A DNA stretch of 64,000 nt from an uncultured Gallionellaceae bacterium (GTDB lineage Bacteria; Pseudomonadota; Gammaproteobacteria; Burkholderiales; Gallionellaceae), in contig CAZNAD010000010.1 of the NCBI GenBank assembly GCA_964571195.1, forward strand, positions 10,029 through 74,028, written 5' to 3'. The translations under genes and the position numbers were made by a program. The notes beneath the pieces are model-generated. The model was not told where the DNA came from and ran no database searches. It saw nothing but the letters and a program-made list of their open reading frames with translations. This document shows positions 8,749 through 26,928 of this stretch, one piece after another. Position 1 is the first letter of the stretch. Each line of letters starts with the position of its first letter.

Positions 8749-9264
8749 TTATTGCCACGCCGCTGGATCGGACGCCTTACTTGAGCGGATAGCGGTCTGG
8801 ATTACTTTCTGTAGCCCTTCCGTATCGAGGCCGAGCAGAATATACAAATCCCCTTCTTTGTTCTGGCGTGCTGCATACAACCGAGCCTCTGCTGATAATG
8901 CTTTATTGAGTTGCTTTGCAACCGCATCATTGATTCTATCTAATTTGGCAGGACTGATATTTTCCCCGGAAAAATATTGGGCGAGCGCCTGTGTGGAGAC
9001 AATTTTCAAGCTGAAAGCCAGTGCCTGACGCGCGCTTTTAACGGCCGTTTCCGTCATCGCCCCGATTCCTGCATCACTCGCACTCGACATGCCGGTAGCT
9101 TGTACATCCAATCCATCGACAGGCGCATCGCACACCCATCCTGGAGCAGCCTCGTCACTGCCAAAGAAGGTGCAATCCATTGCCGCGAAGCTGGGGTTCA
9201 TTGAAGCCAAAAACAAAATTAGAAACGAGACGGCAGCATTTCGGTTGATCATTTTTTTCTCCAT
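8749..9264 (-). CDS. Exported LPP20-like protein, 27 nt downstream of caspase copy A
   Basis: Signal peptide (..MNPSFAA). Paralogous to 18466-19071 (DCTFFGSDEAAPGWVCDAPVDGLDVQATG versus DCTFPSSPDVAAPDWVCTGSAEGVEVSAVG; shared YILLGLD/YVLVGLD block). Confidence 0.7.
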   Translation of the reverse strand: MEKKMINRNAAVSFLILFLASMNPSFAAMDCTFFGSDEAAPGWVCDAPVDGLDVQATGMSSASDAGIGAMTETAVKSARQALAFSLKIVSTQALAQYFSGENISPAKLDRINDAVAKQLNKALSAEARLYAARQNKEGDLYILLGLDTEGLQKVIQTAIRSSKASDPAAWQ

Positions 9265-9291
9265 GTCATGGCAAATTATTGAAACACACTG

Positions 9292-12243
9292 CTACTTACC
9301 CACGCCCACCAACGGGAAGTCGCTCAATCCACCCGGTGCAATACTCACCGGCGTTTGCTGCCCGTGGGTCAAACTTTTCACGCGACCATCCACATAAAAG
9401 TCCAAGCCCTTCACCGTCACCACGCCGCTGTTGTAGGCATCTGCTTTGCCGAACAATCCCTCAACCACCGACTTGGTGAATGCGCCATTGCCCCAACTAT
9501 CATTCTCTTGCGACAACTGTCCTGCTGACGATGCCGTGAACACCACCGCGCCATTTTCAGCCGAAGCCAAGTCGTTCACAAAGCCGCTGGTGCGCACATT
9601 GCCCATCACTCCGCCGGAATAGCAGGTGTCGATAAAGAACACCGTATGCCCCGGCAAGTTGGCGAAGGTTTGCTTGATCTCGCTTTGCGATACACCCGTG
9701 CGAGCCAGCTTGTCCGGGTCGGCGTTGTGCGGCATGAAGTAATACCCGCCCAGCTTGTCATTCATCCCGTGACCGGCTACGAACATCACCCCCACATCAT
9801 TCGCGGAGACATTTTGTTTGAGCCAATCTAAACCATCCAGCACATCATCCTTGGTAGCCTTGTCATCGGTGAGCAGCTTCACCGTAACATCGCTATACAG
9901 TTTTCCTTTCTGCCCCTTCAGCGAATTCACAAAGTCATTCGCATCTTTTGATGCCAGCCCTAAGTTATATTCCGGGTTGGCGTATTTCGACACGCCCACC
10001 GCCAGTACATACAGCTTGGGTTTGCTGGAAGCAGTTTGTTTAGCTGTGGCTTTGTTGCCAGCAAGCTGCAAACGCAAAATGGCGGGCGTGGAAGTGCTGA
10101 ATTTATTTTCTGCGAAGAGTTGAATTTCTACTTCCTGTGATGAAGATGCGGCATCACCTGAAGAGGCTTGTCCGGTTCTTTTCAATGCCCGTGTGGCGGA
10201 TTGAATTCCAGCCTCGGGAATGGTTACTTCGATTTCTTTCACATCATCAGATGTATTGTCAGCCACTCGCTTCAACGCTCGCGTATCCGATTGCAGCAGC
10301 CCATTCACCCGCACCCTCATCGCGGTGACGGGGGCATCGGCAGCAGTGCGTACATGGTAGCGCACCGTGATCTTGCCGGATTGAACGGTAGTGTCTGATG
10401 ACGGAGAAACAATCTCCACCACCGGCGGCAACACTTGCGCAATGGCAGTGACGGCTTGTGTGCGACGACCAGATGCTTCATTGGCGAGGCGCACAGCTTC
10501 CGCTTCGTCTTGCGTTTCCAGCACTTTGCTCAAGACATCGGGGCGATAGAAGCGGTCACGGAAACGCGAAGCGGGGAAAAAATCTGCTTCATGGTCTTTG
10601 CCGTTGTTGACATGCCAGCCGATCAAGCCTTCCGCACCGGGCGAGGCGTCGTAATAACCGGAAGGCGTCCACAGCACCCAGCGCTTTTTATCCGCATGGG
10701 GAAAGAAGGCGAGTTGCTCCACCCCATCGGAAGCGCGATGCCAGCGTATCGTGCCGTCGCCGTAAGCCGCCACCACCCAGCGCCCGTCGGCGGACACGTT
10801 CACCGCCCATACCGAGCCGCCCGGCGAGGGCATTTGCCAGCGTTGGTTGCCGTTGCGGTCGAACAGGCGCAAGAGCCATGTCGTCCCTAGCGCAAAGCCG
10901 CTGCCGTCCGGCAACAGGGCGAGACTGCGCGAGGTTTCATATTGCTCAAGCGAGAGAGGCGTGCCGTTGAGCTTGGGCGCGGTGGTTTCTTCCCAGTCGG
11001 TGACGTTGATGCCCGCTGCACTCAGGAGGGGCGGCTGTAGCCCGGCGGTGTCGTCGGGCAGTATTTGTTTGCGCAGGCTGTCGAATACGACGGGAGCTTT
11101 GCCATTCCATTCATAGCCGAAGCGCACCTGTGCGCCATCGGCGGACAGGGTGAAACCTTCATACATGGCGCGAAAATCCGCCAGTACTGGCGCATGGCGC
11201 AACAACATTTGCCCCTGTCTATCCACCACGCCCCAAGAGGGTTCACCTGCGCCAAACGCCAAGCGCCCGCCGGGCAGAGGCAACAAGTCCATCACCGTAC
11301 TATCCGCCACCGGAATATCCTGCACCGTGTTGCCCTGCCAGTGGCGGATGTAATCTCGTGATTCCCCGTCGAATGGCTTTTGCGCCTGCCCCGCCGCCGC
11401 CAGCCCCTGCGCTGTCCAGGCGACGCTGCTCAACTTTGCATTCACCCCTGCCGTATCGGGCGCATCAAGCAAAGACAAATCCGCCGCGTCCAGCAGGTTC
11501 ACCGCCGGGGTGTCATCAAACCCCAGCGCGATGCGCTTGCCGTCGGGCGAGAAGCGCGCGGCATAGGGCCGCGTCCCCCCCGGTGCGCTGCGCTTGGCGA
11601 GCAGGTTTAAGGTGTTGCCGTCCCAGCGATACAGGCGCACAAAGCCGTCAAAACTGGTGCTGACCAGCCTGCCGTCGCGGCTGAACTGCACCGAGTAGCT
11701 GTCGCTGCCGTAGTCCGTGTCTTGTGCCAGCAGGCGACCCTCGGCCACGGAGAACAGGCGGATGCCATTATTACCATGCAAACTCGCCGCCAGCGTGCGC
11801 CCATCCGGGGCGTAGGCCAGATGGTGAATCACATTGGGCAAGCCGCTGAGGCGGCGCAGCAAACGCCCACTGGCGCGGTCGAGCAGGAAGATGGAATCGC
11901 CCGCTTCGCCCACTTGCGTCCATCCCCCCAGCGCCACGGTTTTGCCGTCAGGCGATAACGCTACCGCATACAGCTTGCCTTCGTCACCGCTACCGATGGG
12001 AATGCGCAAGGTGTTGAGCAAGCGCCCGTCGCGCAAGTTCCACACCTTGGCAGTTTTGTCGTGGGATGCCGTCACCAGATAGCGCCCTTGTGCATCGCTG
12101 GCAATGCGCCCAATCTTCGCCGTGTGTTCGCCGGGGTCGATGCGCAATATGGGTTCGCTGGGTGGTTCGCCAGCATGGGCGGCAACGGATGAGGCCAGCG
12201 CGGTGATGGCAAATAGAAATTTGAAGTGTGAAATTAAGGGCAT
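9292..12243 (-). CDS. Exported WD40-repeat / Ig-like linker / caspase (peptidase C14) fusion protein, copy A
   Basis: 983 aa. Signal peptide (..VAAHA|GE). WD40-like repeats (SHDKTAKVWNL, YGDGTIRWHRA). C-terminal caspase dyad motifs VMFVAGHGMND and VFFIDTCYSGG. Confidence 0.85.
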   Translation of the reverse strand: MPLISHFKFLFAITALASSVAAHAGEPPSEPILRIDPGEHTAKIGRIASDAQGRYLVTASHDKTAKVWNLRDGRLLNTLRIPIGSGDEGKLYAVALSPDGKTVALGGWTQVGEAGDSIFLLDRASGRLLRRLSGLPNVIHHLAYAPDGRTLAASLHGNNGIRLFSVAEGRLLAQDTDYGSDSYSVQFSRDGRLVSTSFDGFVRLYRWDGNTLNLLAKRSAPGGTRPYAARFSPDGKRIALGFDDTPAVNLLDAADLSLLDAPDTAGVNAKLSSVAWTAQGLAAAGQAQKPFDGESRDYIRHWQGNTVQDIPVADSTVMDLLPLPGGRLAFGAGEPSWGVVDRQGQMLLRHAPVLADFRAMYEGFTLSADGAQVRFGYEWNGKAPVVFDSLRKQILPDDTAGLQPPLLSAAGINVTDWEETTAPKLNGTPLSLEQYETSRSLALLPDGSGFALGTTWLLRLFDRNGNQRWQMPSPGGSVWAVNVSADGRWVVAAYGDGTIRWHRASDGVEQLAFFPHADKKRWVLWTPSGYYDASPGAEGLIGWHVNNGKDHEADFFPASRFRDRFYRPDVLSKVLETQDEAEAVRLANEASGRRTQAVTAIAQVLPPVVEIVSPSSDTTVQSGKITVRYHVRTAADAPVTAMRVRVNGLLQSDTRALKRVADNTSDDVKEIEVTIPEAGIQSATRALKRTGQASSGDAASSSQEVEIQLFAENKFSTSTPAILRLQLAGNKATAKQTASSKPKLYVLAVGVSKYANPEYNLGLASKDANDFVNSLKGQKGKLYSDVTVKLLTDDKATKDDVLDGLDWLKQNVSANDVGVMFVAGHGMNDKLGGYYFMPHNADPDKLARTGVSQSEIKQTFANLPGHTVFFIDTCYSGGVMGNVRTSGFVNDLASAENGAVVFTASSAGQLSQENDSWGNGAFTKSVVEGLFGKADAYNSGVVTVKGLDFYVDGRVKSLTHGQQTPVSIAPGGLSDFPLVGVGK

Positions 12244-12489
12244 GGAAACCTCTTTGCATTACTGTGATTTGTATTTCACTTCGCAAAATCCAAACAAGTG
12301 AGCTTGAATACGTCTTTGTTTGGTAATCAATGATGCTTCCCGAATAACAGTAATGGATTCCGGGTTGGGCTGTCAAAGCGGGTGGCAAGCAATTTATTTA
12401 AGCATTGGCTAGTTCGCATCCCGCAATAAGGGCTTCTGAACAAATTGTTCTAAATATAGGGTTCAGCGATCCGAGCGCAGCACTCCCCT

Positions 12490-13083
12490 TTATTGCCCCG
12501 CAGTATGGCCAATCAGCTGTTTAAGACCTTCTTCATTACCACTTAGAAAAATCTTTCCTGCTTCAAGAAAGTGACGCAGACATTCATCCCCTGCGATGTA
12601 TTTTTTTCTGAATTCGTTTGCCGAGTACAACATTGGCTTGATCTCTCGTCGCAACATCGCTTTCGCCGGATACAAAACCTTGTCGATTTCAACTGATGGA
12701 AAGTTGCTCACTACGAGTACATGAATATCCCCCGCCGCAGACTTTGCTTCTTTTTCTGAAATAAACGCCAAGCAAATTCGATCTGAGCAGGGCTCCAATA
12801 TTTCGCGAAGCACATCCACTGTGCCCAGTGTTTTTCGCAACAAATCGCGCAATTCCACGAAGATCGGGCAGCGTGTGTTGGCAGAATAATCTATCTGCCG
12901 CCCCAGTTCTTTTCTTATCAGTAGCCCATATTCCGCCAGTTTCGCCAATTCCTTATGGGCGACACTGAGCGAAATTCCTGTCATGCGTGATATCTCTGCC
13001 GAACTGAAAGACTCGTCAGAACGCAAGAGCAATACCCCGAGCGCGCGGGAACGTGAACTACCTAATAATAACGAAGCCAGCAT
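12490..13083 (-). CDS. Winged-helix (ArsR-like) plus degenerate nucleotidyltransferase-like domain protein
   Basis: N-terminal wHTH (FSSAEISRMTGISLSVAHKELAKLAEYGLL). The C-terminal AAGDIHVLVV resembles the minimal NTase G-x-D-x-D motif but with His in place of the second Asp. ATG at 13083 (the ORF track uses TTG at 13095). Confidence 0.55.
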   Translation of the reverse strand: MLASLLLGSSRSRALGVLLLRSDESFSSAEISRMTGISLSVAHKELAKLAEYGLLIRKELGRQIDYSANTRCPIFVELRDLLRKTLGTVDVLREILEPCSDRICLAFISEKEAKSAAGDIHVLVVSNFPSVEIDKVLYPAKAMLRREIKPMLYSANEFRKKYIAGDECLRHFLEAGKIFLSGNEEGLKQLIGHTAGQ

Positions 13084-13085
13084 AT

Positions 13086-13217
13086 TTACAGACAAACCTT
13101 TTTCCGTTTTTTGTCACGAGGCTCTTCATACTTGCAGTACACGTAGTAAATCACCCATGCCAGCAATGACAGCGTAGCGATATTTAATCCGATAAGAACC
13201 CAATTCAATAAATTCAT
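13086..13217 (-). CDS. Hypothetical 43-aa single-TM peptide abutting the wHTH gene
   Basis: Hand translation gives MNLLNWVLIGLNIATLSLLAWVIYYVYCKYEEPRDKKRKKVCL. Its TAA stop lies 2 nt before the ATG of the next gene (TAAATATG). Confidence 0.3.
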   Translation of the reverse strand: MNLLNWVLIGLNIATLSLLAWVIYYVYCKYEEPRDKKRKKVCL

Positions 13218-13484
13218 GATGGCCTGGCAAATTTTCCCCGGTTACATATGGTAAAAAAATGCTGAGTTATTCAACTTTATCGCCCCAGAGGCGGGAATCT
13301 TTAGCGCTGATTCCAAGGGCATGCCCCACCCATACAAGATGCACTTTATATGCATCAGACACCGGCCACATCATCCAAATGGGGTATATCCCCAAATTTC
13401 GCTGCTGAATTCGGCTATGATTCCGCCGCGATTTGTTCGACAGACACCATCAGAGTGTCGCTTTAAGTCAAAACAGGGGGAGAT

Positions 13485-14333
13485 ATGGGGCAACAGGAAG
13501 TCACTACAGGGAGCTTGTCGGTTCGTCTGCCAGACGGTCGGCGTTTGGGGTATGCGGAATATGGTGTGCCTCATGGCAGGCCGGTGCTGTTTTTTCATGG
13601 CGCGCCGGGTTCGGCTTATGTGCATGCGGATATGGCTGAGATCGCGGCACAACGTGGCGTGCGGCTGATCGGAGTAGATCGCCCCGGATATGGGGTGTCG
13701 GATGTACATCAGAGCCACAGCTTTTTAAGCTGGGCGGACGATGTTGCCGCATTCACAGCTGCACTGGGCATTGCCCGGTTTTCTATCATCGGGTTTTCAG
13801 CGGGGACGCCGTATGCACTTGCCTGTGCATTTAAATTCCCGGATAGGGTCAAACAGGTTGTCTTGGTTGGTGCAATTGTCCCCGGTGTCACTGAGGGTGT
13901 GCCGCCGCTGGTCTGCGGACTTTATGCGCTGGCTCAAACCAATCCAGATGAGTTGAGAAAAACCTTTTCCGCAGTTGCGCCATCGGCATCCGCATTGCTC
14001 GGGGTGGTGTTGTCCAATGTCGCGGAAGTGGACAAGCAAATATTGCATGACCGGACTTCGGATTTCGAGCTGGAGTATGCGCGGACATTGCAGGTCGGCA
14101 TTGAAGGGGTTGCTTCGGACTATATGTTACTTGCCAACGACCAAGGCTTTTCCGTGGATGAAATCGATACCGAGGTTCATTTGTTTAGCGGAACTGTCGA
14201 TCAAAACACCCCGCCAGCCATGACGGAATTCTTCGCATCGCGACTTCCCCGCAGTCGGGTTCATCGCTTACAAGATAAGGGGCATTATATTTTGTACACG
14301 CACTGGGATGAGATATTGAAGTGTTTGAGCTAA
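13485..14333 (+). CDS. Alpha/beta-fold hydrolase
   Basis: 282 aa with HGAPGS (oxyanion region) and a nucleophile elbow GFSAG. AGGGGGAG RBS. Confidence 0.8.
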   Translation: MGQQEVTTGSLSVRLPDGRRLGYAEYGVPHGRPVLFFHGAPGSAYVHADMAEIAAQRGVRLIGVDRPGYGVSDVHQSHSFLSWADDVAAFTAALGIARFSIIGFSAGTPYALACAFKFPDRVKQVVLVGAIVPGVTEGVPPLVCGLYALAQTNPDELRKTFSAVAPSASALLGVVLSNVAEVDKQILHDRTSDFELEYARTLQVGIEGVASDYMLLANDQGFSVDEIDTEVHLFSGTVDQNTPPAMTEFFASRLPRSRVHRLQDKGHYILYTHWDEILKCLS

Positions 14334-14338
14334 GTGCG

Positions 14339-14442
14339 CGGATTTAATCCCCTCTCCTACTGGGAGAGGGAGTGCTCTTGATTCGTAGCCCTCATCCTAA
14401 CCCTCCCCCGGAGGGGGGGGGAAGCAGAAGCGATTAAATCGG
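14339..14442. repeat. REP/MITE-like palindromic element between convergent genes
   Basis: 9-bp terminal inverted repeat GATTTAATC...GATTAAATC enclosing the hairpins CCCTCTCC-tactg-GGAGAGGG and CCCCC-gga-GGGGG. Contains a G9 run (14413-14421). Confidence 0.55.
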
Positions 14443-14449
14443 CACGTCC

Positions 14450-15577
14450 CTAAGACTCGCTGATGTGAGCAAGCGTCCCTGTCGCCAGCAACATCAGCAA
14501 TTCAGACTGACTGCGTGTGTCGGTTTTGCCAAACACGGATTTGAGTTGTGTTCGTGCGGTCGAGATCGAGATGCCCAGGTCGTCTGCGGCTTCTTCAATT
14601 GTTCTGAGTGCGGCCAGTCTGGCGGCAAGCCGGGCTTCCGCCGGAGTGATTTTGTAAAGTGTGACCAGTCGCTTTGGCGACAACTGCAAGCCACCGGGTC
14701 TGGACAAAAATAGAGCGGCACACTCTGAGCTATTGGCGGAATTCAGGATGGATGCCATCTCTGGCGAAACCGGGGTGACGACGCAATGCAGAAAATCGTT
14801 CCTGCCGGGCATCGAGATACGCATGTCGCCGCCCACACCGAATGAGGTGTCCGATATCAGCTTATGCAGTTGCGCTGTTTCGGCGGGGCTGTCGCTTGTA
14901 AGTCTATGGTGAAAAATGCCCAAACCTACATCTTGCGCCATCATCAATTCTGCCGCGCGGTTCATATAGAGTGGTGTGGCGGATCGGTTCGTCAGGATCA
15001 CGCCCATACGCATCTGATCAAGCACCGTATGAGCCTGCTCTTTTTCGGCGGCCACGGTATGAAACTTGTGATGTATTTGGACGGCACGTTTAACGTGAGG
15101 CGCAAGGATGCTCATCAATTGAGCTTCTTCTTCACCAAATGCGCCATCCTGTTTGCCCCGCTGAATTCCCAATACTAATGAACGGTTGTCGTCCTTGAGC
15201 AGAATTACGCCTAGTGCATGGACTTTATCTTGGGGGCGGAGGAAGTCATTGAAGTATTCGGTCTTGCGCAACTTATGCTGATCAATATGCTGGTCGGATA
15301 TGAAGATTTTCCCCGGTGCATGTTGATTCATTACGTGGTCGAAGTAGTCCACCTTGGCGTAGTGTTCGCAGTAAGTTATTCGCCAAGCGGGGTCGTAGCC
15401 GACACTTGCGTTAAAAGTCGCCGATGCGGCTTGTGTTTCATTGGAGCGCAAAATGGCCGATGAACCGCCGAGTGCAGCTGTGAAGCTATCCAGGAATGGA
15501 GCCCACTTGCTCTCGTCGAGCGCGGCATCGTAAATCATGCCCACTAGCTGGAGTGTTTTATCGGTTGAGTCGCTCAT
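14450..15577 (-). CDS. LuxR-family transcriptional regulator (C-terminal HTH, N-terminal sensory region)
   Basis: C-terminal LuxR/GerE-type HTH (TPAEARLAARLAALRTIEEAADDLGISISTARTQLKSVFGKT). 375 aa. Confidence 0.8.
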   Translation of the reverse strand: MSDSTDKTLQLVGMIYDAALDESKWAPFLDSFTAALGGSSAILRSNETQAASATFNASVGYDPAWRITYCEHYAKVDYFDHVMNQHAPGKIFISDQHIDQHKLRKTEYFNDFLRPQDKVHALGVILLKDDNRSLVLGIQRGKQDGAFGEEEAQLMSILAPHVKRAVQIHHKFHTVAAEKEQAHTVLDQMRMGVILTNRSATPLYMNRAAELMMAQDVGLGIFHHRLTSDSPAETAQLHKLISDTSFGVGGDMRISMPGRNDFLHCVVTPVSPEMASILNSANSSECAALFLSRPGGLQLSPKRLVTLYKITPAEARLAARLAALRTIEEAADDLGISISTARTQLKSVFGKTDTRSQSELLMLLATGTLAHISES

Positions 15578-19071: not shown

Positions 19072-19095
19072 ACTCATGAAGCTGTGACCGTATGG

Positions 19096-19958: not shown

Positions 19959-20363
19959 ATGGAAATGAAGCGTATTGGTATTTGCCTGATCATGTTGTTA
20001 AGCGTTCTGGTGTCGGCATGTGCGACTCCTGCGGCACCCGTCGCGGCTAATGCAAGACCGGCATGGATAGACAATCCGGGAGATGGTGTATCGGCTTCGG
20101 CGGGTATGCATGTACGCGGCAAAGCCATGCAGGAAGAGTTGGCGATCTCGCGTGCCAGAGTCGAGTTCGCAAAACGCTTTGGCGTGACGATAGAGTCCGT
20201 CGGGATCTATACCAAGAATATGGCAGGTGGAAAGTCAACAACGACCGGCAGTCAGGTCTCGCAAGAGCAAAGTAAACAAACTGATGTGAAAGCCATGGTG
20301 AAAGCAAAATGGCACGATCAGGAGGCTGATGTGCTGTACGTTTGGCTGGTTCCCAGTAATTAA
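19959..20363 (+). CDS. LPP20-like lipoprotein
   Basis: Lipobox LVSAC. PAWIDNPGDG...GKAMQEELAISRARVEFAKR resembles LPP20-family sequences. 7-nt gap after the FecR gene. Confidence 0.6.
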   Translation: MEMKRIGICLIMLLSVLVSACATPAAPVAANARPAWIDNPGDGVSASAGMHVRGKAMQEELAISRARVEFAKRFGVTIESVGIYTKNMAGGKSTTTGSQVSQEQSKQTDVKAMVKAKWHDQEADVLYVWLVPSN

Positions 20364-20449: not shown

Positions 20450-21955
20450 ATGGATGTGACGAGGGGTCGGAAAGCGGCAAGGTTATTCTCGGTGGCGGGG
20501 CTACTGTGTTTGCCTTTGAACGGTGCGTTTGCGCAGGATGACTTCGAGGCATACCGCCGCCAGCAAGCTCAGGGGGCGCAACAGGAAAAAGCCAGATTCG
20601 ATGTTTACAAAGAGCAGCAAGACCGCGAATTTGCCGGATTCCTGAAAAGCCAGTGGAGCGAATTCGAAACCTTTCAGGGCAAGGTGCGGATCAAAGAGCC
20701 CAAGCCCAAGCAACCCCCGGTCGCTTTGCCTGTTGTGGTTGCGCCTACCGCCAAGCCTGTTCCAGTCACGCCTCCCGTTGCTGTGGCACCGTTACTCGCG
20801 CCGGTGACCCCTCCGCCACCTCCGGCGCAACCCAAGCCCGTTACCGTTGGAGCCGATCAGTTAGATTTGATGTTCTACGGTAATGCAGTGGGATTTGCGT
20901 TCGATCCGCAATGGAAAACCTATCGCTTAACCGGCGGAGCCAAACCGGAAACCATCAGTGAGTTCTGGACCACGATGAGCGGCAGTAAATACGAGGCGAC
21001 ACTTCAGGCGATCAATGCGGCGCGCAAAGAGTTAAAGCTGGATGATTGGGGGTATGTCACATTGTGGCGCGATGTGGTGCGCGCGCTGCAACCGGAACGC
21101 CAGTCCGAGCAAAATCTGTTGCTTTGGTTCTTTCTGGTCAAGTCGGGATATGACGTGCGCCTGGGGTATTACGAGAAAGATGTGTTCCTTTTTGTAGCCA
21201 TCAAACAGCCTGTGTATTCGACGAAATACACCAGAGTTAACGATCAAACTTATTATGCGGCGCTGGCTGCCGATCACGGCAATGGCATCCGGGCTTTCTA
21301 CAGCTATAAATCAGACTATCCGGCAAAGCTGAAAGCGCTGGATATAAAATCCGCCGCCACCGGATTTACCAAGACGGTTTCCGCGCAACGCGAACTCGCT
21401 TTCGACTACAAGGGGAAAACGATCAAGCTCTCCGTTCCCTATGATCGCCGTTTGGTCGAATATATGAGCACGTTTCCCCAATCCGAATTCGAGTTGTATT
21501 TTGATACGGACGGTAGCTCCGTGTTGAAAGGCGCGTTACTCGCTGAATTGAAAAAATATACGGCTACGATGAGCGAAGAAGAGGCGGTGAATTTCCTGCT
21601 TGCCTTCGTCCAGAAAGCCTTTGCCTACAAGACCGATGATGATCAATTCGGTGCCGAAAAATACTTCTTCGTTGAAGAGTCGCTGCACTTCCCTTACAAC
21701 GACTGCGAAGACCGCTCTGTGCTGTTTGCTTGGCTGGTACACGAACTGGTCGGGATCAAAGTGGTCGGCTTGCTTTATCCGGGGCACATGACCACGGCTG
21801 TCGAATTAAAACAGGTGAACGACGAATTTTTCACCGTGACCTACCAAAACAAGCGGCTGGTCGTCGCCGACCCAACGTATATCGGGGCATCAGTCGGCAT
21901 GGCGATGCCTTCTTATGCCAAATACAAACCTAAGCGGGTGGTGGAGATTCAGTGA
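20450..21955 (+). CDS. Exported protein with a Pro-rich linker and a C-terminal transglutaminase-like (Cys-His-Asp) core
   Basis: Signal peptide (..NGAFAQ). PKPKQPPVALPVVVAPTAKPVPVTPP linker. Putative triad context YNDCEDRS ... YPGHMTTAV ... VVADPT. Confidence 0.6.
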   Translation: MDVTRGRKAARLFSVAGLLCLPLNGAFAQDDFEAYRRQQAQGAQQEKARFDVYKEQQDREFAGFLKSQWSEFETFQGKVRIKEPKPKQPPVALPVVVAPTAKPVPVTPPVAVAPLLAPVTPPPPPAQPKPVTVGADQLDLMFYGNAVGFAFDPQWKTYRLTGGAKPETISEFWTTMSGSKYEATLQAINAARKELKLDDWGYVTLWRDVVRALQPERQSEQNLLLWFFLVKSGYDVRLGYYEKDVFLFVAIKQPVYSTKYTRVNDQTYYAALAADHGNGIRAFYSYKSDYPAKLKALDIKSAATGFTKTVSAQRELAFDYKGKTIKLSVPYDRRLVEYMSTFPQSEFELYFDTDGSSVLKGALLAELKKYTATMSEEEAVNFLLAFVQKAFAYKTDDDQFGAEKYFFVEESLHFPYNDCEDRSVLFAWLVHELVGIKVVGLLYPGHMTTAVELKQVNDEFFTVTYQNKRLVVADPTYIGASVGMAMPSYAKYKPKRVVEIQ

Positions 21956-22020: not shown

Positions 22021-22398
22021 ATGCGCATCTCAAAATTCTTTATGATTGCTGCGCTGCTGGTGACTGTGGCGGCCTGCGACAAGAAAGTCGAAGTCACGGA
22101 AGCTGCGCCCGCTGGCAAGGTCGAGGCGCAACAGGCTTTGCCGGCTGTGCAGCCGAAGCATGATCTGCCGTCGTCGGAGCAGCCGAAGCATGCTGACGAG
22201 TCGCCGGGAAAAAAGGCCGGAAACGAGGTTAACGGCGGGGAGCATAAACCAGTCGCCAAACCGGAAAGCGCAGAACAGGTCTTGGAGAGCGTCATTCCCA
22301 ATAGGCAGGAGCCGGAGGATGCGCGTGTCGCCGAACAAAAGCGGCGCGGCAAAAAGGCGGAAGATGAGATGTTGCAGGAGATTGACAAATATAAGTGA
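22021..22398 (+). CDS. Low-complexity (Lys/Glu/Pro-rich) lipoprotein
   Basis: ATG at 22021 (MRISKFFMIAALLVTVAAC: lipobox VAAC). The rest is predicted disordered. Confidence 0.55.
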   Translation: MRISKFFMIAALLVTVAACDKKVEVTEAAPAGKVEAQQALPAVQPKHDLPSSEQPKHADESPGKKAGNEVNGGEHKPVAKPESAEQVLESVIPNRQEPEDARVAEQKRRGKKAEDEMLQEIDKYK

Positions 22399-22524: not shown

Positions 22525-25458
22525 ATGAACTACTTCACTCTATTGAAACGTGTTGCTCCGATGAGCGCAACCGCGTTTTTTCTGGGAGGTCTCTTTCTCT
22601 GCGGTTTACAACCGGTTTACGCGGGAGACCCGCCCGCCGAGCCTATGTTGCGCTTCGATCTCGGCGAACACACAGGTGTGCTTCGCCGCATTGCAGTGGA
22701 CGATGAAGGCCGCTTTGCTGTGACATCTTCAGATGACAAGACGGCGCGGGTGTGGAGTTTGCCGGACGGGCGTTTGCTTTCTACCTTGCGCGTTCCCCTC
22801 AGTGGCGGTAACGAGGGCAAACTGTTTGCCGTGGCGATGTCGCCCGATGGCAATACCGTTGCCTTGGGTGGGTGGACTGGTTGGGACTACGAGAATTCGA
22901 TGTCTATTTTTCTTTTTGATCGAGCCAGTGGTCGCATGTTGCGCCGCCTGACCGGTTTGCCGGAGGTGATCAATCACCTCGCGTTTTCACCCGATGGCCG
23001 CCTGCTGGCGGCGTGCATGGGGAGTCAAAGTGGTATTCGCCTGTTTTCCGTAAGTACCGGACGCTTGTTGGCGGAAGATGCGGACTATGGTGCCAGCAGC
23101 TATTCTGTGCATTTCAGTCGCGACGGGCGTTTGCTGGCCAGCAGTTACGATGGTTATCTGCGCATGTACCGCTGGAATGGACAAACATTGAGCCTGCTGG
23201 CCAAACGTACCGTTCCCGGCGGGAGTCAGCCGGAAGGGGCACGATTTTCACCGGATGGTACACGCATAGCCGTGGGATTCAGTGACTCGACAGCGGTCAA
23301 TGTGTTGGATGGGGATGATCTCAGTTTCTTGTATGCGCCGGATACTGCGGGCGTAGGTGCGAAATTAAGCAGTGTGGCGTGGTCTGCCGATGGTCAAACG
23401 CTGTACGCAGGCGGGCAGGCGCAAGCTAAATATGATGAAGGGTGGCGACAATATATCCGCCGCTATGAGCAGGCTGGGCGCGGGGCAGCACAGAACATCC
23501 CGGTGGTCACTGACAGCATTATGGCGCTGGTTCCCTTGCCCGATGGTGGTTTGGTGTTCGGATCGGCGGCCTCTTCATGGGGCATGCTGGATGCTCAAGG
23601 CCGGCGTGTATTGCTTCATACGCCAGTGATTCCCGATTATCGGAATCTATTGGAAGGATTCACCTTGTCTGCCGATGGTACGCAGGTGCGTTTCGGTTAT
23701 GAATGGCCAGGCAAGTCTCCTGTGGTGCTCGATAGTCGTACCCGCAGCCTGTTGGCGGATGATGTCCCCGGTTTGATCCCCCCTGTGGTCAGTATGCCAG
23801 GTCTGGATGTGACCGGCTGGGAACACACGACCGCTCCCAAGCTCAACGGAACTGCACTCCCGCTCCAGTCATATGAGTTCTCGAGCAGCATGGCGTTCGC
23901 GCCGGATGGCAGTGGTTTGGCGCTGGGGTCAAGTTGGAATTTGCGCTTTTTCGACCGTAATGGCAATAAGCGCTGGGGACATCCAACCCCCGGTTCCGCG
24001 TGGGCTGTGAATATATCTCAGGACGGACGTTGGGTTGTGGCAGCCTATGGCGACGGCACGATACGCTGGCATCGAGCCTCCGATGGTGTCGAGCAGATGG
24101 CGTTCTTCCCGCATGCGGACAAGAAGCGCTGGGTGATGTGGACACCCTCCGGTTATTACGCTGCATCACCCGGCGCGGAAGACTTGATCGGTTGGCATCT
24201 GAATAACGGCAAAGATCGTGCGGCAGACTTCTTCCCGGCTTCGCGTTTCCGCGAACGTTATTATCGTCCCGATGTGCTGGCGAAAGTCTTTGATACGCAG
24301 GACGAAGCCCAGGCTGTGCAGATGGCGAATGCCGAATCCGGCCGTAGACAGACTGCGATGGCTTCCATCGCGGAGATATTGCCGCCGGTAGTGGAAATCA
24401 TTTCTCCTGTCGCTGACGCTCCTGTCCGGTCGAGCAAAGTCACCGTGCGCTACCGTGTGCGCACGCTGCCCGATGCGCCGGTGACGGGCATCCGTGTTCG
24501 TGTGAACGGACAGTCGGTCAGCGCGGAACGCGCATTAAAACGCAAGGAGGAATCCGGCAACGAAATTCGCGAGGTTGAGGTCGACATCCCGGAACAGGAT
24601 AGCGATATCGCGCTGTTTGCCGAGAACAAGAACGGTATTTCCACGGCCGCATTGTTGCACCTTGAATGGGCGGGTAAAAAAGCTGCTGTCGAAGCGGTGC
24701 AATTCAAACCCAAACTGTATGTACTGGCGGTGGGGGTGTCGAAATACAAGAACCCGGACTACAACCTGGGATTGGCCGCAAAAGATGCAAAAGACTTCGC
24801 TGCCGTGCTGCAAAAACAGCAGGGTAGACTGTATGGCGAGGTCGTGGTCAAGCTGCTTACCGATAACGGTGCGACACGTGATGATGTGGTGGACGGATTG
24901 GAGTGGTTGAAGCAGCAAGTGACTACCCGCGACGTGGGCATGATGTTCATTGCCGGTCACGGCATGAACGACAACCAGGGCAAATATTTCTTCTTGCCGC
25001 ACAATGCCGATCCAGACAAGTTATTGCGTACCGGTGTGGCGCAGACCGACATTCGCGATACGCTGAATTCGCTAGCGGGCAAGGCCGTATTCTTTGTGGA
25101 CACCTGTCATGCGGGTAATGCGTTGGGCACCTCCAAGACCCGCGCCATTGGCGGTACGGCAGATGCCTTCATCAACGAACTGGGTTCGGCGGAGAACGGT
25201 GTGGTGGTGTTTTCATCTTCTACCGGAAAACAGTTATCGCAGGAGAATCCTGCCTGGGGTAACGGCGCTTTCACCAAAGCGGTGGTCGAGGGCTTGAGTG
25301 GCAAGGCGGACTTTACCAAGAATGGCAAAATCACTCATAAGGGGTTGGATTATTACGTTACCGAGCGCGTGAAAGAGCTGACCAAGGGGCAACAGTCTCC
25401 GGTTGCCATCGCACCGAATGGCATCACGGATTTCCCGATCGCGGTGGCAGGGAAATAA
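22525..25458 (+). CDS. Exported WD40-repeat / Ig-like linker / caspase (peptidase C14) fusion protein, copy B
   Basis: 977 aa. Signal peptide (..QPVYA|GD). 57 of 85 hand-aligned N-terminal residues are identical to copy A. Dyad motifs MMFIAGHGMND and VFFVDTCHAGN. Confidence 0.85.
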   Translation: MNYFTLLKRVAPMSATAFFLGGLFLCGLQPVYAGDPPAEPMLRFDLGEHTGVLRRIAVDDEGRFAVTSSDDKTARVWSLPDGRLLSTLRVPLSGGNEGKLFAVAMSPDGNTVALGGWTGWDYENSMSIFLFDRASGRMLRRLTGLPEVINHLAFSPDGRLLAACMGSQSGIRLFSVSTGRLLAEDADYGASSYSVHFSRDGRLLASSYDGYLRMYRWNGQTLSLLAKRTVPGGSQPEGARFSPDGTRIAVGFSDSTAVNVLDGDDLSFLYAPDTAGVGAKLSSVAWSADGQTLYAGGQAQAKYDEGWRQYIRRYEQAGRGAAQNIPVVTDSIMALVPLPDGGLVFGSAASSWGMLDAQGRRVLLHTPVIPDYRNLLEGFTLSADGTQVRFGYEWPGKSPVVLDSRTRSLLADDVPGLIPPVVSMPGLDVTGWEHTTAPKLNGTALPLQSYEFSSSMAFAPDGSGLALGSSWNLRFFDRNGNKRWGHPTPGSAWAVNISQDGRWVVAAYGDGTIRWHRASDGVEQMAFFPHADKKRWVMWTPSGYYAASPGAEDLIGWHLNNGKDRAADFFPASRFRERYYRPDVLAKVFDTQDEAQAVQMANAESGRRQTAMASIAEILPPVVEIISPVADAPVRSSKVTVRYRVRTLPDAPVTGIRVRVNGQSVSAERALKRKEESGNEIREVEVDIPEQDSDIALFAENKNGISTAALLHLEWAGKKAAVEAVQFKPKLYVLAVGVSKYKNPDYNLGLAAKDAKDFAAVLQKQQGRLYGEVVVKLLTDNGATRDDVVDGLEWLKQQVTTRDVGMMFIAGHGMNDNQGKYFFLPHNADPDKLLRTGVAQTDIRDTLNSLAGKAVFFVDTCHAGNALGTSKTRAIGGTADAFINELGSAENGVVVFSSSTGKQLSQENPAWGNGAFTKAVVEGLSGKADFTKNGKITHKGLDYYVTERVKELTKGQQSPVAIAPNGITDFPIAVAGK

Positions 25459-25497
25459 GCGGCCAGACGACAACATTTACCAATAGATTTAAATGAT

Positions 25498-26928
25498 ATG
25501 GAGAACAACATGACGCGCATCTATTTCCTGGCAGTATTGCTGCTGTTTAGTCCGCCATCGTTTGCGGCCCAGCTTACGGGACAAGGCTGGGGCGACACCG
25601 AGGCTGCCGCCAAACGCGAGGCGCTGGCTGATATCTCCTCCCGCATCAGCGTGACGGTGCGCAGCAAGCTGAAAAACAAGAAGACGATCACATCGAAAAT
25701 TGACGATCAGAAGAGATCCGATTCGGTGAATCAGGTGGCGGAGAGCACTGTTGAGACGGAGTCTGAACTGCCCATTCTCGGTGCGGAATTCAACAGCCAG
25801 AAAGCAGGCGAAAAATTCTTTGTGGAGGCTACGCTGGACGATGCCCGCAGCCAGCGTTTGTATGAGCAAAGGCTGAGTGAGTTGCGCCAACAGATTGCTG
25901 CGGCGCATGGGCGTTTTGCCAAGACGCAGGGTAATGAGGCGCAGTATTACTTGCTCATGGAGATGCTGACCCAACTGGAGGAATACAAAAAACTCAACAC
26001 GGTGGCGATCTATCTGGGCAGCGCGCCAGCCGAACCTGCCGTGAGTGAGGCCGTGTTACGTCAGCAATTGCGCTCGGTCACCCAGCAAGTCGATAGTCTG
26101 GATCTGGCAGCCAAATTGCTGGCGGCGGACATTGCCGAGACCGGTATCTATGTGTTCCCCGCCAAAGCTCGCGGCGCCGATGAGATCACGCCATTCGCCG
26201 CCTTGTTAAAAGATAAGGTGGGCGCGAATCTCAAAACGGTGCGTGAGCCGTATGCCGCGACATATACGCTGACAGGTGAATATGCCGAGTCGGCAGATGG
26301 TATTGATGTCACTTATCAGCTGGTCGATAAAGACTCCTCTACGTTGCTGAGCCGCAGTGTGCGTCTGGCCAGGGCCGCCTACGCCGGGCTGGAGACCAAG
26401 CCGAAGACCGTCAGTTTCGAGCAGCTTCTTAAAGCCGGAGTGGCCATTTCGGGCGATCTGCATGTCGATATATCAACCAGCCAGGGCAAACACGATTTGC
26501 TGTTCACTGAAGGCGAGGAAGTCGAGCTGTTCGTCAAATTGAGCGAGGCCGGATATTTCTATGTGGTGGGACACACCATCAAGGATTCCGAAAAGAATTC
26601 CTATCTGCTGGAACTGCGCGACGTGGAAGGGCCGCGTAAATTCGTCCAGTTCGTCAATGCGGATGATGCCAACAAGCTGATCAGCATCGGCAAGTTCGAA
26701 GTGAGTGTGCCGTTCGGCGTGGAAGGCTTGCAGGTGTTTGCATCCAGCAAGGATCTGCTGGAAAGCTTGCCCCCGACCCGGCACGACAGCGCAAGCGGCC
26801 TTTACCTCATCTCTGCTTCGCCGCAGGAAGGGGTGACCAAAACGCGGGCGCTGATAAAAAAGAAAAAACAGGCTGCGCAGACTGCCGAGGGTTCGCTGAT
26901 ATTTACGACACAGCCAGCCCGGCCTTAG
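25498..26928 (+). CDS. Exported protein with an LPP20-like N-terminal domain and a DUF4384-like C-terminal domain
   Basis: Signal peptide (..PPSFAA). GQGWGDTEAAAKREALADISSRISVTV is LPP20-like. The C-terminal GEEVELFVKLSEAGYFYVVGH...FEVSVPFGVEGLQVFASS matches my recollection of DUF4384. Confidence 0.6.
   Translation: MENNMTRIYFLAVLLLFSPPSFAAQLTGQGWGDTEAAAKREALADISSRISVTVRSKLKNKKTITSKIDDQKRSDSVNQVAESTVETESELPILGAEFNSQKAGEKFFVEATLDDARSQRLYEQRLSELRQQIAAAHGRFAKTQGNEAQYYLLMEMLTQLEEYKKLNTVAIYLGSAPAEPAVSEAVLRQQLRSVTQQVDSLDLAAKLLAADIAETGIYVFPAKARGADEITPFAALLKDKVGANLKTVREPYAATYTLTGEYAESADGIDVTYQLVDKDSSTLLSRSVRLARAAYAGLETKPKTVSFEQLLKAGVAISGDLHVDISTSQGKHDLLFTEGEEVELFVKLSEAGYFYVVGHTIKDSEKNSYLLELRDVEGPRKFVQFVNADDANKLISIGKFEVSVPFGVEGLQVFASSKDLLESLPPTRHDSASGLYLISASPQEGVTKTRALIKKKKQAAQTAEGSLIFTTQPARP

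Follow-up and report, generated by a model that had tools for sequence, protein, structure and literature searches.

Three recurrent modules of predicted envelope-targeted cysteine proteases, LPP20-like proteins and FecR/CHASE2 proteins in a Gallionellaceae-like bacterium

The stretch of about 18 kb (positions 8749–26928) separating the cbb3-oxidase maturation genes from fnr in a Gallionellaceae-like bacterium is, as judged by comparison with related loci, a composite of three separable modules. These are a putative secreted protease, K, with LPP20-type proteins (K+LPP20), predicted exported caspases with the protein N (caspase+N), and a FecR protein with a CHASE2 sensor (FecR+CHASE2). The FecR+CHASE2 association has already been published; K+LPP20 and caspase+N are recurrent yet uncharacterised. 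Neither a conserved secreted caspase/LPP20-DUF4384 pair nor its joining with the K cluster was described in the literature searched.

Bacterial caspase homologues have been discussed almost wholly as cytoplasmic cell-death or defence proteases, and here they are predicted to be exported and accompanied by an HP1454/LpoB-like partner across phyla. K represents a very large family devoid of a Pfam model, with a predicted LapG-like fold and LPP20 lipoproteins as partners. If the parts cooperate, they would form a widespread layer of regulated proteolysis beneath the outer membrane (OM) and would offer a testable role for orphan LPP20/HP1454 proteins, DUF4384, ligand-less CHASE2 and secreted FecR proteins.

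Gene content and surroundings of the stretch

The genes ccoN, ccoO, ccoP, ccoG, ccoH, ccoI and ccoS, identified by matches to the COX1, FixO, FixP_N/Cytochrome_CBB3, Fer4_18/FixG_C, FixH, E1-E2 ATPase and FixS profiles, occupied positions 128–8571 of the window, i.e., of the whole 64,000-nucleotide DNA analysed. The features discussed below are as follows.

A, 8749–9264 (-): secreted LPP20-like protein, 171 aa
B, 9292–12243 (-): signal peptide, WD40 propeller region, Ig-like domain, caspase (Peptidase_C14), 983 aa
C, D, E, 12490–15577 (.): wHTH (PDC-M05A-like), alpha/beta hydrolase and LuxR-like proteins; in range yet not conserved with the cluster
F, 15798–17489 (-): CHASE2 membrane protein, 563 aa, with a cytoplasmic C-terminal domain of ~145 aa
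G, 17536–18150 (-): small OmpA-like OM beta-barrel, 204 aa
H, 18466–19071 (+): LPP20 lipoprotein, 201 aa from MSKITK, lipobox LAAC
I, 19191–19952 (+): secreted FecR-domain protein, 253 aa; its C-terminus is a helical module with homology to the K N-terminus
J, 19959–20363 (+): small LPP20-like lipoprotein, 134 aa, lipobox VSAC
K, 20450–21955 (+): secreted, 501 aa; long N-terminal helix, Pro-rich linker, alpha/beta domain and putative C-terminal transglutaminase-like (LapG-like) cysteine-protease domain
L, 22021–22398 (+): disordered Lys/Glu/Pro-rich lipoprotein, ~125 aa, lipobox VAAC
M, 22525–25458 (+): signal peptide, WD40 region, caspase, 977 aa
N, 25498–26928 (+): secreted, 476 aa; LPP20-like domain, helical hairpin, second LpoB-like domain, DUF4384 beta-sandwich
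fnr, 28262–29248: Crp/cNMP_binding, C-x2-C-x5-C motif
hemN, 29008–30531: Radical_SAM and HemN_C

A heuristic of our own, not SignalP, predicted envelope targeting for 11 of the 14 genes A–N, with signal peptides in A, B, G, I, K, M and N, lipoboxes in H, J and L, and transmembrane (TM) helices in F, which agrees with the periplasmic or OM location claimed in the first-pass annotation. O and P, situated beyond 8749–26928, also encode membrane proteins. The spacing of several genes was operon-like, with gaps of 7 bp between I and J, 40 bp between M and N, 28 bp between B and the downstream A, and 46 bp between F and G, which lies upstream of it.

Nearly all of the domains named in that annotation were recovered in profile searches (caspase, WD40, LPP20, FecR, CHASE2, OM barrel, DUF4384). 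Its two fusions of a signal peptide, WD40 and caspase were confirmed by Pfam WD40 and Peptidase_C14, the Ig-like part being weak in B, and the FecR protein, CHASE2 sensor and small barrel by Pfam E-values of 1.2e-12, 6e-53 and 2.6e-6, respectively. The count of four to five LPP20-like domains was upheld by Pfam for H and N and by custom profiles for A and J. The absence of NTPase, integrase and phage genes also stood, as none occurred among the profile matches of the island products, and no characterised system of this composition was found in the literature searched, PADLOC or NCBIfam, in line with the earlier statement that none was known.

PADLOC reported no complete system, only generic 'caspase' matches for B and M (1e-11 to 1e-12) and a lone PDC-M05A-like C, with no match for K, N, F, I, H, A, J, L, G, O or P. 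No tRNA was present in the window, and no integrase, transposase or phage family was detected in profile searches of the island gene products. The G+C content of the stretch (0.48–0.63) was similar to that of the flanks (0.50–0.61). Composition and the lack of mobility genes gave no sign of a recent insertion between ccoS and fnr. K matched one of 72,556 plasmid records and one of 50,697 phage records. The locus does not resemble a mobile genomic island in terms of integrase/transposase, tRNA target, deviant composition or presence on plasmids and phages.

Three genes were set apart from the remainder. C matched PDC-M05A of PADLOC at 9.5e-48, with weak wHTH matches, and D matched Abhydrolase_1 at 1e-23. 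The LuxR assignment of E was the weakest domain call: no GerE match was obtained even at E ≤ 1, and what stood was an NCBIfam LuxR-family match with an E of 0.05 and, on visual inspection, a C-terminal HTH resembling that of LuxR. C, D and E had no counterpart in any of the ~170 related loci and were treated as probable passengers, not system parts. The earlier idea of a signal relayed from FecR/CHASE2 to LuxR therefore lacks comparative support.

Predicted proteases, their LPP20-type partners and the FecR/CHASE2 pair

K was the most conserved gene of the cluster. Its family comprised 2460 representative clusters (50% identity) from at least 582 species of many phyla, gut Bacteroides included, and K clusters were common in Bacteroidales and Cloacimonadota MAGs. 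No Pfam family was matched at E ≤ 0.01, BTLCP included, no NCBIfam or PADLOC match was obtained, and a 53-sequence profile found no sequence match in the PDB. The best Foldseek matches of the AF2 model (pLDDT 91.9) were the LapG structures 4fgp, 4fgo and 4fgq, with a probability of 0.91–0.98 and TM (target) of 0.47–0.51, although the E-values were weak (0.05–0.17) despite the high probability. They were followed by the putative transglutaminase-like proteases 3kd4 and 3isr and by PNGase. In the alignment of K homologues, H446 and D474 were invariant and C419 was retained in at least 90%. The predicted fold and the conserved Cys-His-Asp support the view of K as a putative LapG-like (transglutaminase-fold) cysteine protease and bear out its initial transglutaminase-like label despite the absent Pfam match. 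Transglutaminase (cross-linking) chemistry may be an alternative.

Both caspases passed the PF00656 gathering score of 21.4 bits (50.4 bits for B and 54.9 for M) and were 61% identical to each other. B matched WD40 at 2.4e-20, Peptidase_C14 at 3e-13 and, weakly, the Ig family Big_7 at 1e-3, and M matched WD40 at 3e-24 and Peptidase_C14 at 1.3e-14. The catalytic His (AGHG) and Cys (DTC(Y/H)(S/A)G, with DTCYSG in B) were present in both proteins, and the dyad was retained in 18/18 cluster-linked caspases. B and M are predicted to be exported caspases with an intact catalytic dyad. They share Peptidase_C14 and this dyad with orthocaspases, for which Arg/Lys is the P1 specificity, and metacaspases. 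Such proteins, including those with WD40, FGE-sulfatase or DUF4384 partners, have been handled singly in published work, chiefly as proteases of cell death or stress in the cytoplasm. In a survey of prokaryotic caspases, WD40 was the commonest fused domain, FGE-sulfatase was frequent and N-terminal helices were described as 'likely to be signal peptides' (PMC3501461).

The product of N, encoded next to M, matched Pfam LPP20 at 8.5e-7. Its DUF4384 match (1.5e-3) was under the Pfam cut-off; a custom profile of this region gave 3e-43, and DUF4384 in a Bacteroidales N homologue reached the cut-off. The AF2 model of N (pLDDT 85.7) was matched in Foldseek by HP1454 (4kzs; E 6e-5, probability 1.0), LpoB (4q6z; probability 1.0) and TolB (N), with the second domain resembling the LpoB C-domain (probability 1.0). 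In contrast to the LpoB and TolB-N adaptors, no PBP1B or Tol-Pal genes were located nearby, and the adaptors here are numerous and paired with proteases. A caspase gene was found within three genes of N in 24/80 N loci, 23 times on the same strand, and in 11 of the 19 loci having at least 3 kb on both flanks. The M-type architecture adjoined N-type genes in L101, L107, L147 and the Bacteroidales locus L054. The recurrence of this arrangement points to N as a conserved partner of the secreted caspase across phyla.

Among the remaining LPP20-type proteins, H matched Pfam LPP20 at 2.7e-6, and its homologue in L001/L002 was also called as a 201-aa protein. A terminator-like hairpin was noticed after H, at 19094–19125. 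H has a paralogue in A (32% identity, E 3e-26), which had no Pfam match and was detected by custom LPP20-like profiles at 1e-18 to 1e-24. The corresponding values for J, likewise devoid of a Pfam match, were 1e-24 to 1e-29, and a counterpart of 127–154 aa was located between the FecR and K genes in L005, L007, L012 and L013. L was lineage-specific, with homologues only in L001/L002, both from the same organism as the window.

In I, only a signal peptide precedes the FecR domain (PF04773, 1.2e-12). I and K were similar in BLASTP (E 4e-4), and when the tails of 17 FecR proteins were aligned with the heads of 85 K proteins by hhalign, the probability was 94% and the E 1.3e-7. A FecR-K fusion (P0191) and a FecR-N fusion (P0296) were also identified. 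As in FecIRA, a FecR periplasmic domain is present; I has no cytoplasmic anti-sigma domain with a TM helix, and no gene for a sigma factor or TonB-dependent receptor occurred in the stretch.

F matched CHASE2 at 6e-53 and had TM segments at residues 30–48, 338–356 and 368–386. For its C-terminus, neither a Pfam match nor BLAST similarity to the L014 homologue's cyclase was obtained; the CHASE2 proteins of other K loci carry Guanylate_cyc. In two other Gallionellaceae genomes, one of them that of Sideroxydans lithotrophicus ES-1, homologues of F (60–65% identity) were located at an unrelated sodB-SH3_3-Peptidase_M48 locus. For this genome, a tie between F and the cluster is suggested by adjacency and by five other K loci. 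The genes I and F are transcribed divergently, with 1.7 kb between them, and FecR and CHASE2 genes were directly adjacent in L014, L015 and L155.

A secreted FecR protein near a CHASE2 sensor is reminiscent of the published FecR+CHASE2 operons (COG4254/COG4252; Burkholderia 'BiofilmReg', P. aeruginosa PA4035-type), in which a signal-peptide FecR protein adjoins a CHASE2 sensor (PMC5192318). Those operons, however, combine a LysM-FecR protein, histidine-kinase output and a response regulator, whereas profile searches of the stretch gave no LysM, HisKA/HATPase or REC match, and I has a K-type helical module and sits in the K operon. The gene G, adjoining F, encodes a protein matching OmpA_membrane above the cut-off (2.6e-6) and OMP_b-brl marginally. 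Small OMP_b-brl genes start the K clusters of L003 and L008; G had no detectable sequence homology to them.

Joining of the modules in other genomes

Gene linkage was counted in 83 independent K loci (1.27 Mb in total). FecR and LPP20-like genes were counted using profiles custom-built here, so the numbers in distant phyla hinge on profile sensitivity: LPP20-like genes were present in 54 loci and FecR genes in 15. Caspases were found in 10 loci (13 genes), N-type genes in 10 and CHASE2 genes in five. A 2012 survey listed 671 metacaspases in 267 carrier genomes (PMC3501461), i.e., ~2.5 per genome, and this generous ceiling gives less than one caspase expected by chance in 1.27 Mb versus 13 observed near K.

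The key prediction of the first-pass annotation, co-localisation in unrelated genomes, was borne out by these K- and N-anchored scans. Its reading of the stretch as one island did not hold in the same scans, as the modules were mostly apart, with a caspase in 10/83 K loci, CHASE2 in 5/83 and K in 1/80 N loci. All linkage evidence is genomic context. Because the modules are usually separate, with caspases near 12% of K loci, their combination may be optional or merely opportunistic.

Nevertheless, at least six distant lineages show the modules joined again, frequently with a single strand carrying them. In the Hydrogenophilaceae locus L014, one strand carries caspase, N, FecR, CHASE2-cyclase, three LPP20-like genes and K, and in the Pfam-checked Bacteroidales locus L054 one strand carries WD40-caspase, DUF6770, N, an LPP20-like gene and K. 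Combined arrangements were also seen in Ignavibacteriae (L079), Calditrichaceae (L030), KSB1 (L037), Proteobacteria (L070) and a Gallionellaceae-like contig (L090). In close Gallionellaceae relatives, the order LPP20-FecR-LPP20-K was found with no caspase or CHASE2 gene, and the K cluster of relatives sits at other chromosomal sites, dnaE-sulP or crp-nuo.

Possible working of the locus and competing explanations

The locus may, as a tentative proposal for which the chances are somewhat below even, encode an OM-tethered periplasmic proteolysis-and-sensing complex composed of the three recurrent modules. In the first module, K would act with the OM LPP20-type lipoproteins H and J. The second would comprise the WD40-caspases, each with a secreted partner of LPP20 type encoded downstream (N for M and A for B), and the third would consist of I and the inner-membrane protein F, to which the barrel G may belong. 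Proteins of the LPP20/LpoB fold would serve as OM-tethered adaptors positioning or restraining both kinds of cysteine protease under the OM. The caspases might also cleave LPP20-type scaffolds, a possibility raised in the first-pass annotation. I could dock to K, or compete with it, via their common helical module of ~50 residues, and its FecR domain might report the state of the complex to the CHASE2 domain of F. F would drive a cNMP cyclase in other taxa and here would act through its 145-aa cytoplasmic domain. As a net result, an envelope event would be converted into limited periplasmic proteolysis and a cytoplasmic signal.

A stronger version, in which K, the LPP20-fold adaptors, the caspase/N pairs and the FecR/CHASE2 pair constitute one unrecognised, phylum-spanning, OM-tethered dual cysteine-protease machine turning an envelope event into limited periplasmic proteolysis and a transmembrane signal, is rather unlikely. 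If true, caspase-based signalling would have an equivalent in the periplasm, and the DegS/RseA, Rcs and Lap pathways would be joined by a new class.

It is somewhat unlikely that the stretch is a loose neighbourhood, in which unrelated envelope sets (K+LPP20, caspase+N and CHASE2) act alone, e.g., in periplasmic quality control or lipoprotein processing. The separation of the modules in most genomes (79/80 N loci lacked K), the K clusters of close Gallionellaceae relatives devoid of caspase and CHASE2, the F homologues at another locus and the interruption of the stretch by the unrelated C, D and E are consistent with such independence. However, the repeated rejoining of the modules, the FecR-K and FecR-N fusions, the helical module common to I and K, the LPP20/LpoB-fold adaptor domain common to all modules and the number of caspases near K, far above the chance ceiling, speak against it.

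K could also clip, and so release, a surface or OM-anchored protein in a Lap-like adhesin/biofilm switch set by nucleotide second messengers (CHASE2-cyclase, GGDEF/EAL, Crp-like), which is distinctly unlikely. In common with LapG/LapD/LapA, K is secreted, with a conserved Cys-His-Asp and a C-terminal domain best matched by LapG structures, and a gene for an inner-membrane signalling protein is close by. Genes for CHASE2-Guanylate_cyc proteins were present in K loci, the cluster is bordered in L003 and L090 by a Crp-like regulator and a CBS-PAS-GGDEF-EAL gene, PAS/GGDEF/EAL-type genes were found near K in 11 loci, and a FecR-CHASE2 operon controls biofilm (PMC5192318). GGDEF/EAL genes are, however, very common in Proteobacteria, so this adjacency may be due to chance, and F has no cyclase domain here. 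Moreover, K differs from LapG in its additional N-terminal helix, Pro-rich linker and alpha/beta domain and in the lack of a Pfam match (BTLCP included), it is partnered by LPP20-type lipoproteins and a FecR protein, and no LapD-type receptor, LapA-type giant adhesin or T1SS was detected in profile searches of the genes at 8.7–28.2 kb.

Several bacterial defence systems use caspase-fold proteases, and an envelope immunity or suicide module, with the secreted caspases triggered by the entry of a phage, bacteriocin or predator in a variable, defence-island-like neighbourhood, was considered improbable. The weak 'caspase' matches of B and M, the PDC-M05A-like gene inside the stretch and the accessory genes varying by locus (FGE-sulfatase-kinase, PEGA, tandem caspase arrays) fit this explanation. 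The stretch, however, contains no NTPase/STAND, complete PADLOC system or mobility genes, K is nearly absent from plasmids and phages, the Gallionellaceae K cluster occupies a conserved housekeeping site (dnaE to sulP/metG), and the proteases are predicted to be exported, unlike known abortive-infection caspases.

The H. pylori lpp20 operon (HP1454, HP1456/Lpp20 and HP1457) resembles the locus in combining LPP20-fold lipoproteins with a secreted multi-domain protein, H corresponding to LPP20 and N to HP1454; the H. pylori proteins have interaction partners among OM-proximal lipoproteins. The literature examined reported no protease, FecR, CHASE2 or DUF4384 component there, whereas here LPP20-fold proteins accompany two classes of cysteine protease. 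Bacteroidales, in which K clusters are common, have no flagella to our knowledge. That LPP20/FlgP-type proteins form a structural ring or scaffold close to the OM (e.g., as an accessory of the flagellar motor or for OM stabilisation), with the proteases serving its maturation only, is highly improbable given this occurrence in Bacteroidales and Cloacimonadota, the absence of flagellar genes in the window region and the lack of an OM-barrier defect in the H. pylori hp1456 mutant. Points in its favour are that FlgP, which forms the basal disk by self-assembly, is a member of the LPP20 family, that FlgP and FapH are interaction partners of Lpp20 and HP1454 in H. pylori (PMC11756786), HP1454 being matched by N, and that in L005–L007 the cluster has fliL a few genes upstream. 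True LpoB-family genes were located within the K clusters of L090 and B. finegoldii, and FGE-sulfatase genes were recurrent in K loci.

Gene content between the cco genes and fnr

The region between the cco genes and fnr had been described in the first-pass annotation as a single envelope caspase/LPP20/FecR/CHASE2 island of about 18 kb. Sixteen plausible genes were found between the cco genes and fnr/hemN, with A–N located in the range reported at that time (8749–26928) and O and P beyond it. The overall observation was confirmed, and most of the earlier domain calls were borne out by Pfam.

Features of the region (window coordinates)
ccoNO(Q)P-ccoGHIS: 128–8571, flank
B and M: WD40-caspase fusions (Pfam Peptidase_C14, 3e-13 for B and 1.3e-14 for M)
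C: 12490–13095, minus strand, wHTH protein with a possible minimal nucleotidyltransferase-like C-terminus
43-aa hydrophobic ORF: 13086–13217, minus strand, overlapping the start of C
D: alpha/beta hydrolase (Pfam)
F: CHASE2 protein (Pfam, 6e-53)
G: small OmpA-like barrel (Pfam)
H: LPP20 lipoprotein (Pfam)
I: FecR-domain protein (Pfam, 1.2e-12)
K: start at 20450, 501 aa
N: LPP20 protein with a weak DUF4384 match (Pfam)
O and P: 27001–28228, minus strand, between the cluster and fnr; O of 251 aa with an N-terminal TM anchor, P of 183 aa with about four TM segments
fnr: 28262–29248, minus strand, longest ORF of 328 aa
hemN: 29008–30531, plus strand, longest ORF of 507 aa with a TTG start

The two WD40-caspases shared 61% identity and the catalytic His and Cys were kept in both. 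No Pfam match was obtained for A and J; A is paralogous to H and, like J, matched LPP20-like profiles built in this analysis from related loci. A simple hydrophobicity and lipobox check detected export signals in A, B, G, H, I, J, K, L (a disordered lipoprotein), M and N, and TM helices in F. The least secure call was that of E as a LuxR-like regulator, for which no GerE match was observed even at E ≤ 1 and the NCBIfam match had an E-value of 0.05.

No tRNA gene was present in the window. Integrase, transposase and phage families were absent from the profile matches of the island gene products, in agreement with the first reading, and the G+C content of the island was not set apart from that of its flanks. 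Neither composition nor gene content points to recent mobility. In their sources, the homologues of K, N and F carry the names Gallionellaceae, Sideroxydans, Sideroxyarcus or Nitrosomonadales, and the identical locus was also found on two Logan contigs.

The longest ORFs of fnr and hemN overlap divergently by about 240 bp. In the fnr ORF the Crp/cNMP domains start only near residue 127, and in the hemN ORF Radical_SAM starts at residue 105, so that both genes probably have internal true starts. No match was identified for O and P in Pfam, PADLOC or the related loci, and because their ORFs overlap by 80 bp, one start of this pair is probably wrong. A hairpin with a 14-bp stem followed by a T-run was noticed at 19094–19125 on the plus strand, just 3' of H; H may be transcribed apart from I-J-K-L-M-N, or attenuation may occur ahead of those genes.

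Protein K and its neighbours in other genomes

No match to K was found in Pfam, NCBIfam or PADLOC, and a PDB sequence search with the K profile returned spurious low-complexity matches only. In the AlphaFold2 model (pLDDT 91.9, pTM 0.85), a long helix at the N-terminus is followed by a disordered Pro-rich linker, then an alpha/beta domain and finally the C-terminal domain. The top Foldseek match in the PDB was Legionella LapG (probability 0.91–0.98, TM 0.47–0.51 on the target), followed by the putative transglutaminase-like cysteine proteases 3kd4 and 3isr and then by PNGase; the E-values were weak (0.05–0.4), the matches being coherent and fitting the conserved triad. In an alignment of 53 sequences, H446 and D474 were invariant and C419, lying within an SDCEDRS motif, was kept in at least 90%. 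Because of these coherent fold matches and the conserved triad, K is predicted to be a secreted cysteine enzyme of the transglutaminase fold that resembles LapG and is most likely a protease, and the earlier "transglutaminase-like" call was right.

The K family has more than 1,000 close relatives and 2,460 representative clusters at 50% identity (1,350 at E ≤ 1e-30), and the GTDB genome set yielded relatives from at least 582 species. Among the matches listed were those from Proteobacteria, Bacteroidota, Cloacimonadota, Calditrichota, KSB1, Ignavibacteriae, Spirochaetales, Campylobacterota and Desulfobacterota. Plasmids and phages are almost devoid of K. In Bacteroides finegoldii "plasmid 8" (NZ_OY725910.1, 93830–101055; locus L172), an LpoB-like gene, DUF6175, two LPP20 lipoprotein genes, a hypothetical gene and a K homologue lie in a row; this 101-kb replicon is typed as non-mobilizable, carries dprA and other housekeeping-type genes and may be a chromosomal fragment.

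All six-frame ORFs of 88 related loci were searched with iterated, domain-restricted profiles derived from the proteins of the window, and the genes were counted over 83 independent K loci totalling 1.27 Mb. LPP20-like genes were detected in 54 of the 83 loci, FecR-domain genes in 15, caspases in 10 (13 genes), N-type LPP20-DUF4384 genes in 10 and CHASE2 genes in five, with a caspase and an N-type gene occurring jointly in seven. Precomputed Pfam calls on the contigs of close relatives agreed with this survey. Gallionellaceae relatives showed the order LPP20-(50 aa)-FecR-(127 aa)-K or OMP_b-brl-369-488-FecR-LPP20-(54 aa)-K, usually between dnaE and sulP/metG and with neither a caspase nor a CHASE2 gene. 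According to these counts and gene orders, the conserved core consists of K and LPP20-type lipoproteins, to which a FecR protein is often added.

The fuller arrangement recurred in distant lineages, bearing out the co-localisation in unrelated genomes on which the initial idea depended. In the Hydrogenophilaceae locus L014, a caspase, N, FecR, CHASE2-Guanylate_cyc, three LPP20-like genes and K are located on one strand. The same applies to the Bacteroidales MAG locus L054, with a 1177-aa WD40-caspase, DUF6770, a DUF4384 protein, an LPP20-like gene, a 379-aa gene and K (Pfam-verified). Similar sets were present in Ignavibacteriae (L079), Calditrichaceae (L030), KSB1 (L037), Bacteroidota (L053, L074, L080) and a proteobacterial MAG (L070). 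The 2012 survey reported 671 metacaspases in the 267 genomes having any, about 2.5 per carrier genome (PMC3501461). At this density, a generous ceiling, less than one caspase would be expected by chance in 1.27 Mb, compared with the 13 observed.

Other neighbours of K were also recorded. FGE-sulfatase domains, alone or fused to a Ser/Thr kinase-TM-TPR module or PEGA repeats, were found in 13 K loci, often immediately upstream of K (L007, 8998–9912; L030, L037, L073 and others); in the 2012 survey this domain was often found fused to bacterial caspases (PMC3501461). In six gammaproteobacterial MAG loci (L017, L019, L023, L034, L043 and L056), ccmF-ccmG-ccmH-ccmI and a DsbA-like gene lie directly ahead of a minimal LPP20-K pair and share its strand, an order checked with Pfam in L043, and the window cluster comes after the cbb3 maturation genes ccoGHIS (3867–8571). 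This repeated adjacency to cytochrome/thiol-redox maturation genes may be a coincidence or a hint to the substrates or redox needs of K. In the Gallionellaceae-like loci L003 (1–4561) and L090 (14233–18854), a Crp/Fnr-family regulator and a 1222–1327-aa CBS-PAS(-GGDEF-EAL) protein are encoded on one side of the K cluster and NADH-dehydrogenase-like genes on the opposite side. The window fnr is not detectably orthologous to these Crp-like genes, no tblastn match being obtained at 1e-3. L090 is not a variant of the dnaE locus either, since its 1222-aa neighbour is a CBS-PAS-GGDEF-EAL protein and not DnaE.

Separate modules and genes outside the conserved cluster

The model of N (pLDDT 85.7) was most similar to H. 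pylori HP1454 (E 6e-5, probability 1.0), a secreted protein from the lpp20 operon, followed by the LpoB C-domain (probability 1.0) and TolB; the C-terminal DUF4384 region forms an Ig-like beta-sandwich. An N-anchored metagenome scan with a 3-sequence proteobacterial alignment as the query, hence biased toward Proteobacteria-like sequences, gave 80 loci. Of these, 24 encode a caspase within three genes of N (23 on the same strand), as do 11 of the 19 loci having at least 3 kb on both sides. K was found in only one of the 80 (L090) and CHASE2 in two (L094 and L155, the latter also with FecR). With caspases so frequent near N and K so rare, the caspase and N make up a tight, separate module. The single 18-kb island was not upheld, the stretch dissolving into modules.

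WD40-caspases like M were present in the N loci L101, L107 and L147. Each caspase gene of the window is followed by a gene for a secreted LPP20-fold protein, N 40 bp after M and A 28 bp after B. The His/Cys dyad was kept in 18 of 18 caspases found in K loci, and most caspases with complete N-termini open with a signal-peptide-like sequence. In L116, L122, L123, L126, L163 and L167, a lone N-type gene is surrounded by three to five caspase genes in tandem, which suggests protease diversification around one shared N-type partner.

No homologue of C, D, E, O or P was identified in the roughly 170 loci retrieved, and these genes do not belong to the conserved cluster. Over its whole length, C matched PDC-M05A, a candidate-defence model of PADLOC (E 9.5e-48), and no PDC-M05B-like partner was recognised. 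The gene is isolated in an AT-richer spacer, within the kilobase of lowest G+C (0.48) in the region, and is flanked by non-coding DNA (12244–12489 and 13096–13484). PADLOC gave no match for the 43-aa ORF, A, J, L, G, O or P.

Homologues of F with 60–65% identity and the same architecture were identified across Gallionellaceae. In Sideroxydans lithotrophicus ES-1 (CP001965, 9341–13053; L170) and a second genome (L171), the homologue adjoins sodB in a conserved sodB-CHASE2 order, with SH3_3 and Peptidase_M48 genes following it in ES-1. Neither a LuxR-type neighbour nor a K cluster was present at these two loci. The proposed relay to LuxR therefore found no support, and E was rejected as a component of the system. 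The cytoplasmic C-terminus of F (145 aa) is conserved full-length in these homologues and constitutes an uncharacterised CHASE2 output domain typical of Gallionellaceae. Its reading by eye as a degenerate class III cyclase was dropped, with no Pfam match and no BLASTP similarity to the CHASE2-cyclase of L014.

Possible joint action in the envelope

Several features connected the modules. Fusion proteins joining FecR to K (P0191) and FecR to N (P0296) were identified, and the tail at the C-terminus of I was found to share a module of about 50 residues with the helix at the N-terminus of K (BLASTP E 4e-4; hhalign of 17 FecR-protein tails against 85 K heads, 94% probability, E 1.3e-7). An LPP20/LpoB-type fold was common to every module, and true LpoB-family genes occurred inside K clusters (L090 and B. 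finegoldii).

The reading preferred here, tentatively and at somewhat less than even confidence, is that the proteases, LPP20 adaptors and FecR/CHASE2 proteins act jointly in the envelope. Its computed basis comprises export signals on most of the proteins, two cysteine-protease classes with intact catalytic residues, multiple LPP20/LpoB-fold proteins, a FecR protein with the K-type helical module, a CHASE2 membrane protein, and recurrent cross-phylum linkage and fusions. LPP20-fold lipoproteins would tether or gate the proteases beneath the outer membrane, and the CHASE2 sensor would be linked to K through I. Limited proteolysis of adaptors or other envelope substrates could then be coupled to a cytoplasmic signal, which in other taxa would be a cNMP.

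The modules could instead be independent and merely neighbours, as the near absence of K from N loci would allow; given the fusions, this appears less likely. A Lap-like adhesin or biofilm switch, recalling the LapG-like fold of K, is improbable, and envelope immunity still more so. A purely structural LPP20 ring is the least probable. For joint action in the envelope, the related known kinds are periplasmic regulated proteolysis and orthocaspases, and there is a real chance that the system is distinct from them.

The stalk-formation (sfz/sfb) cluster of iron oxidisers was ruled out as a counterpart, since its proteins are of the BcsB/glycosyltransferase type and no lipoprotein, FecR, TGase or caspase term occurs in the paper. 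In line with the first-pass annotation, no characterised system of such composition was found in the literature searched (subscription journals not covered), PADLOC or NCBIfam; nor did these sources describe the K family, its association with LPP20 lipoproteins, secreted caspases paired with an LPP20-DUF4384 protein or the modules in combination. What makes the cluster notable is how broad the K family is, that the caspases are exported and that the linkage spans phyla. Each domain family is already known, and WD40-caspase and signal-peptide caspase architectures were tabulated in 2012 (PMC3501461). A secreted FecR protein with a CHASE2 sensor is likewise known, from the "BiofilmReg" operon of Burkholderia and its P. 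aeruginosa counterpart (PMC5192318), and the FecR and CHASE2 genes were directly adjacent in L014, L015 and L155.
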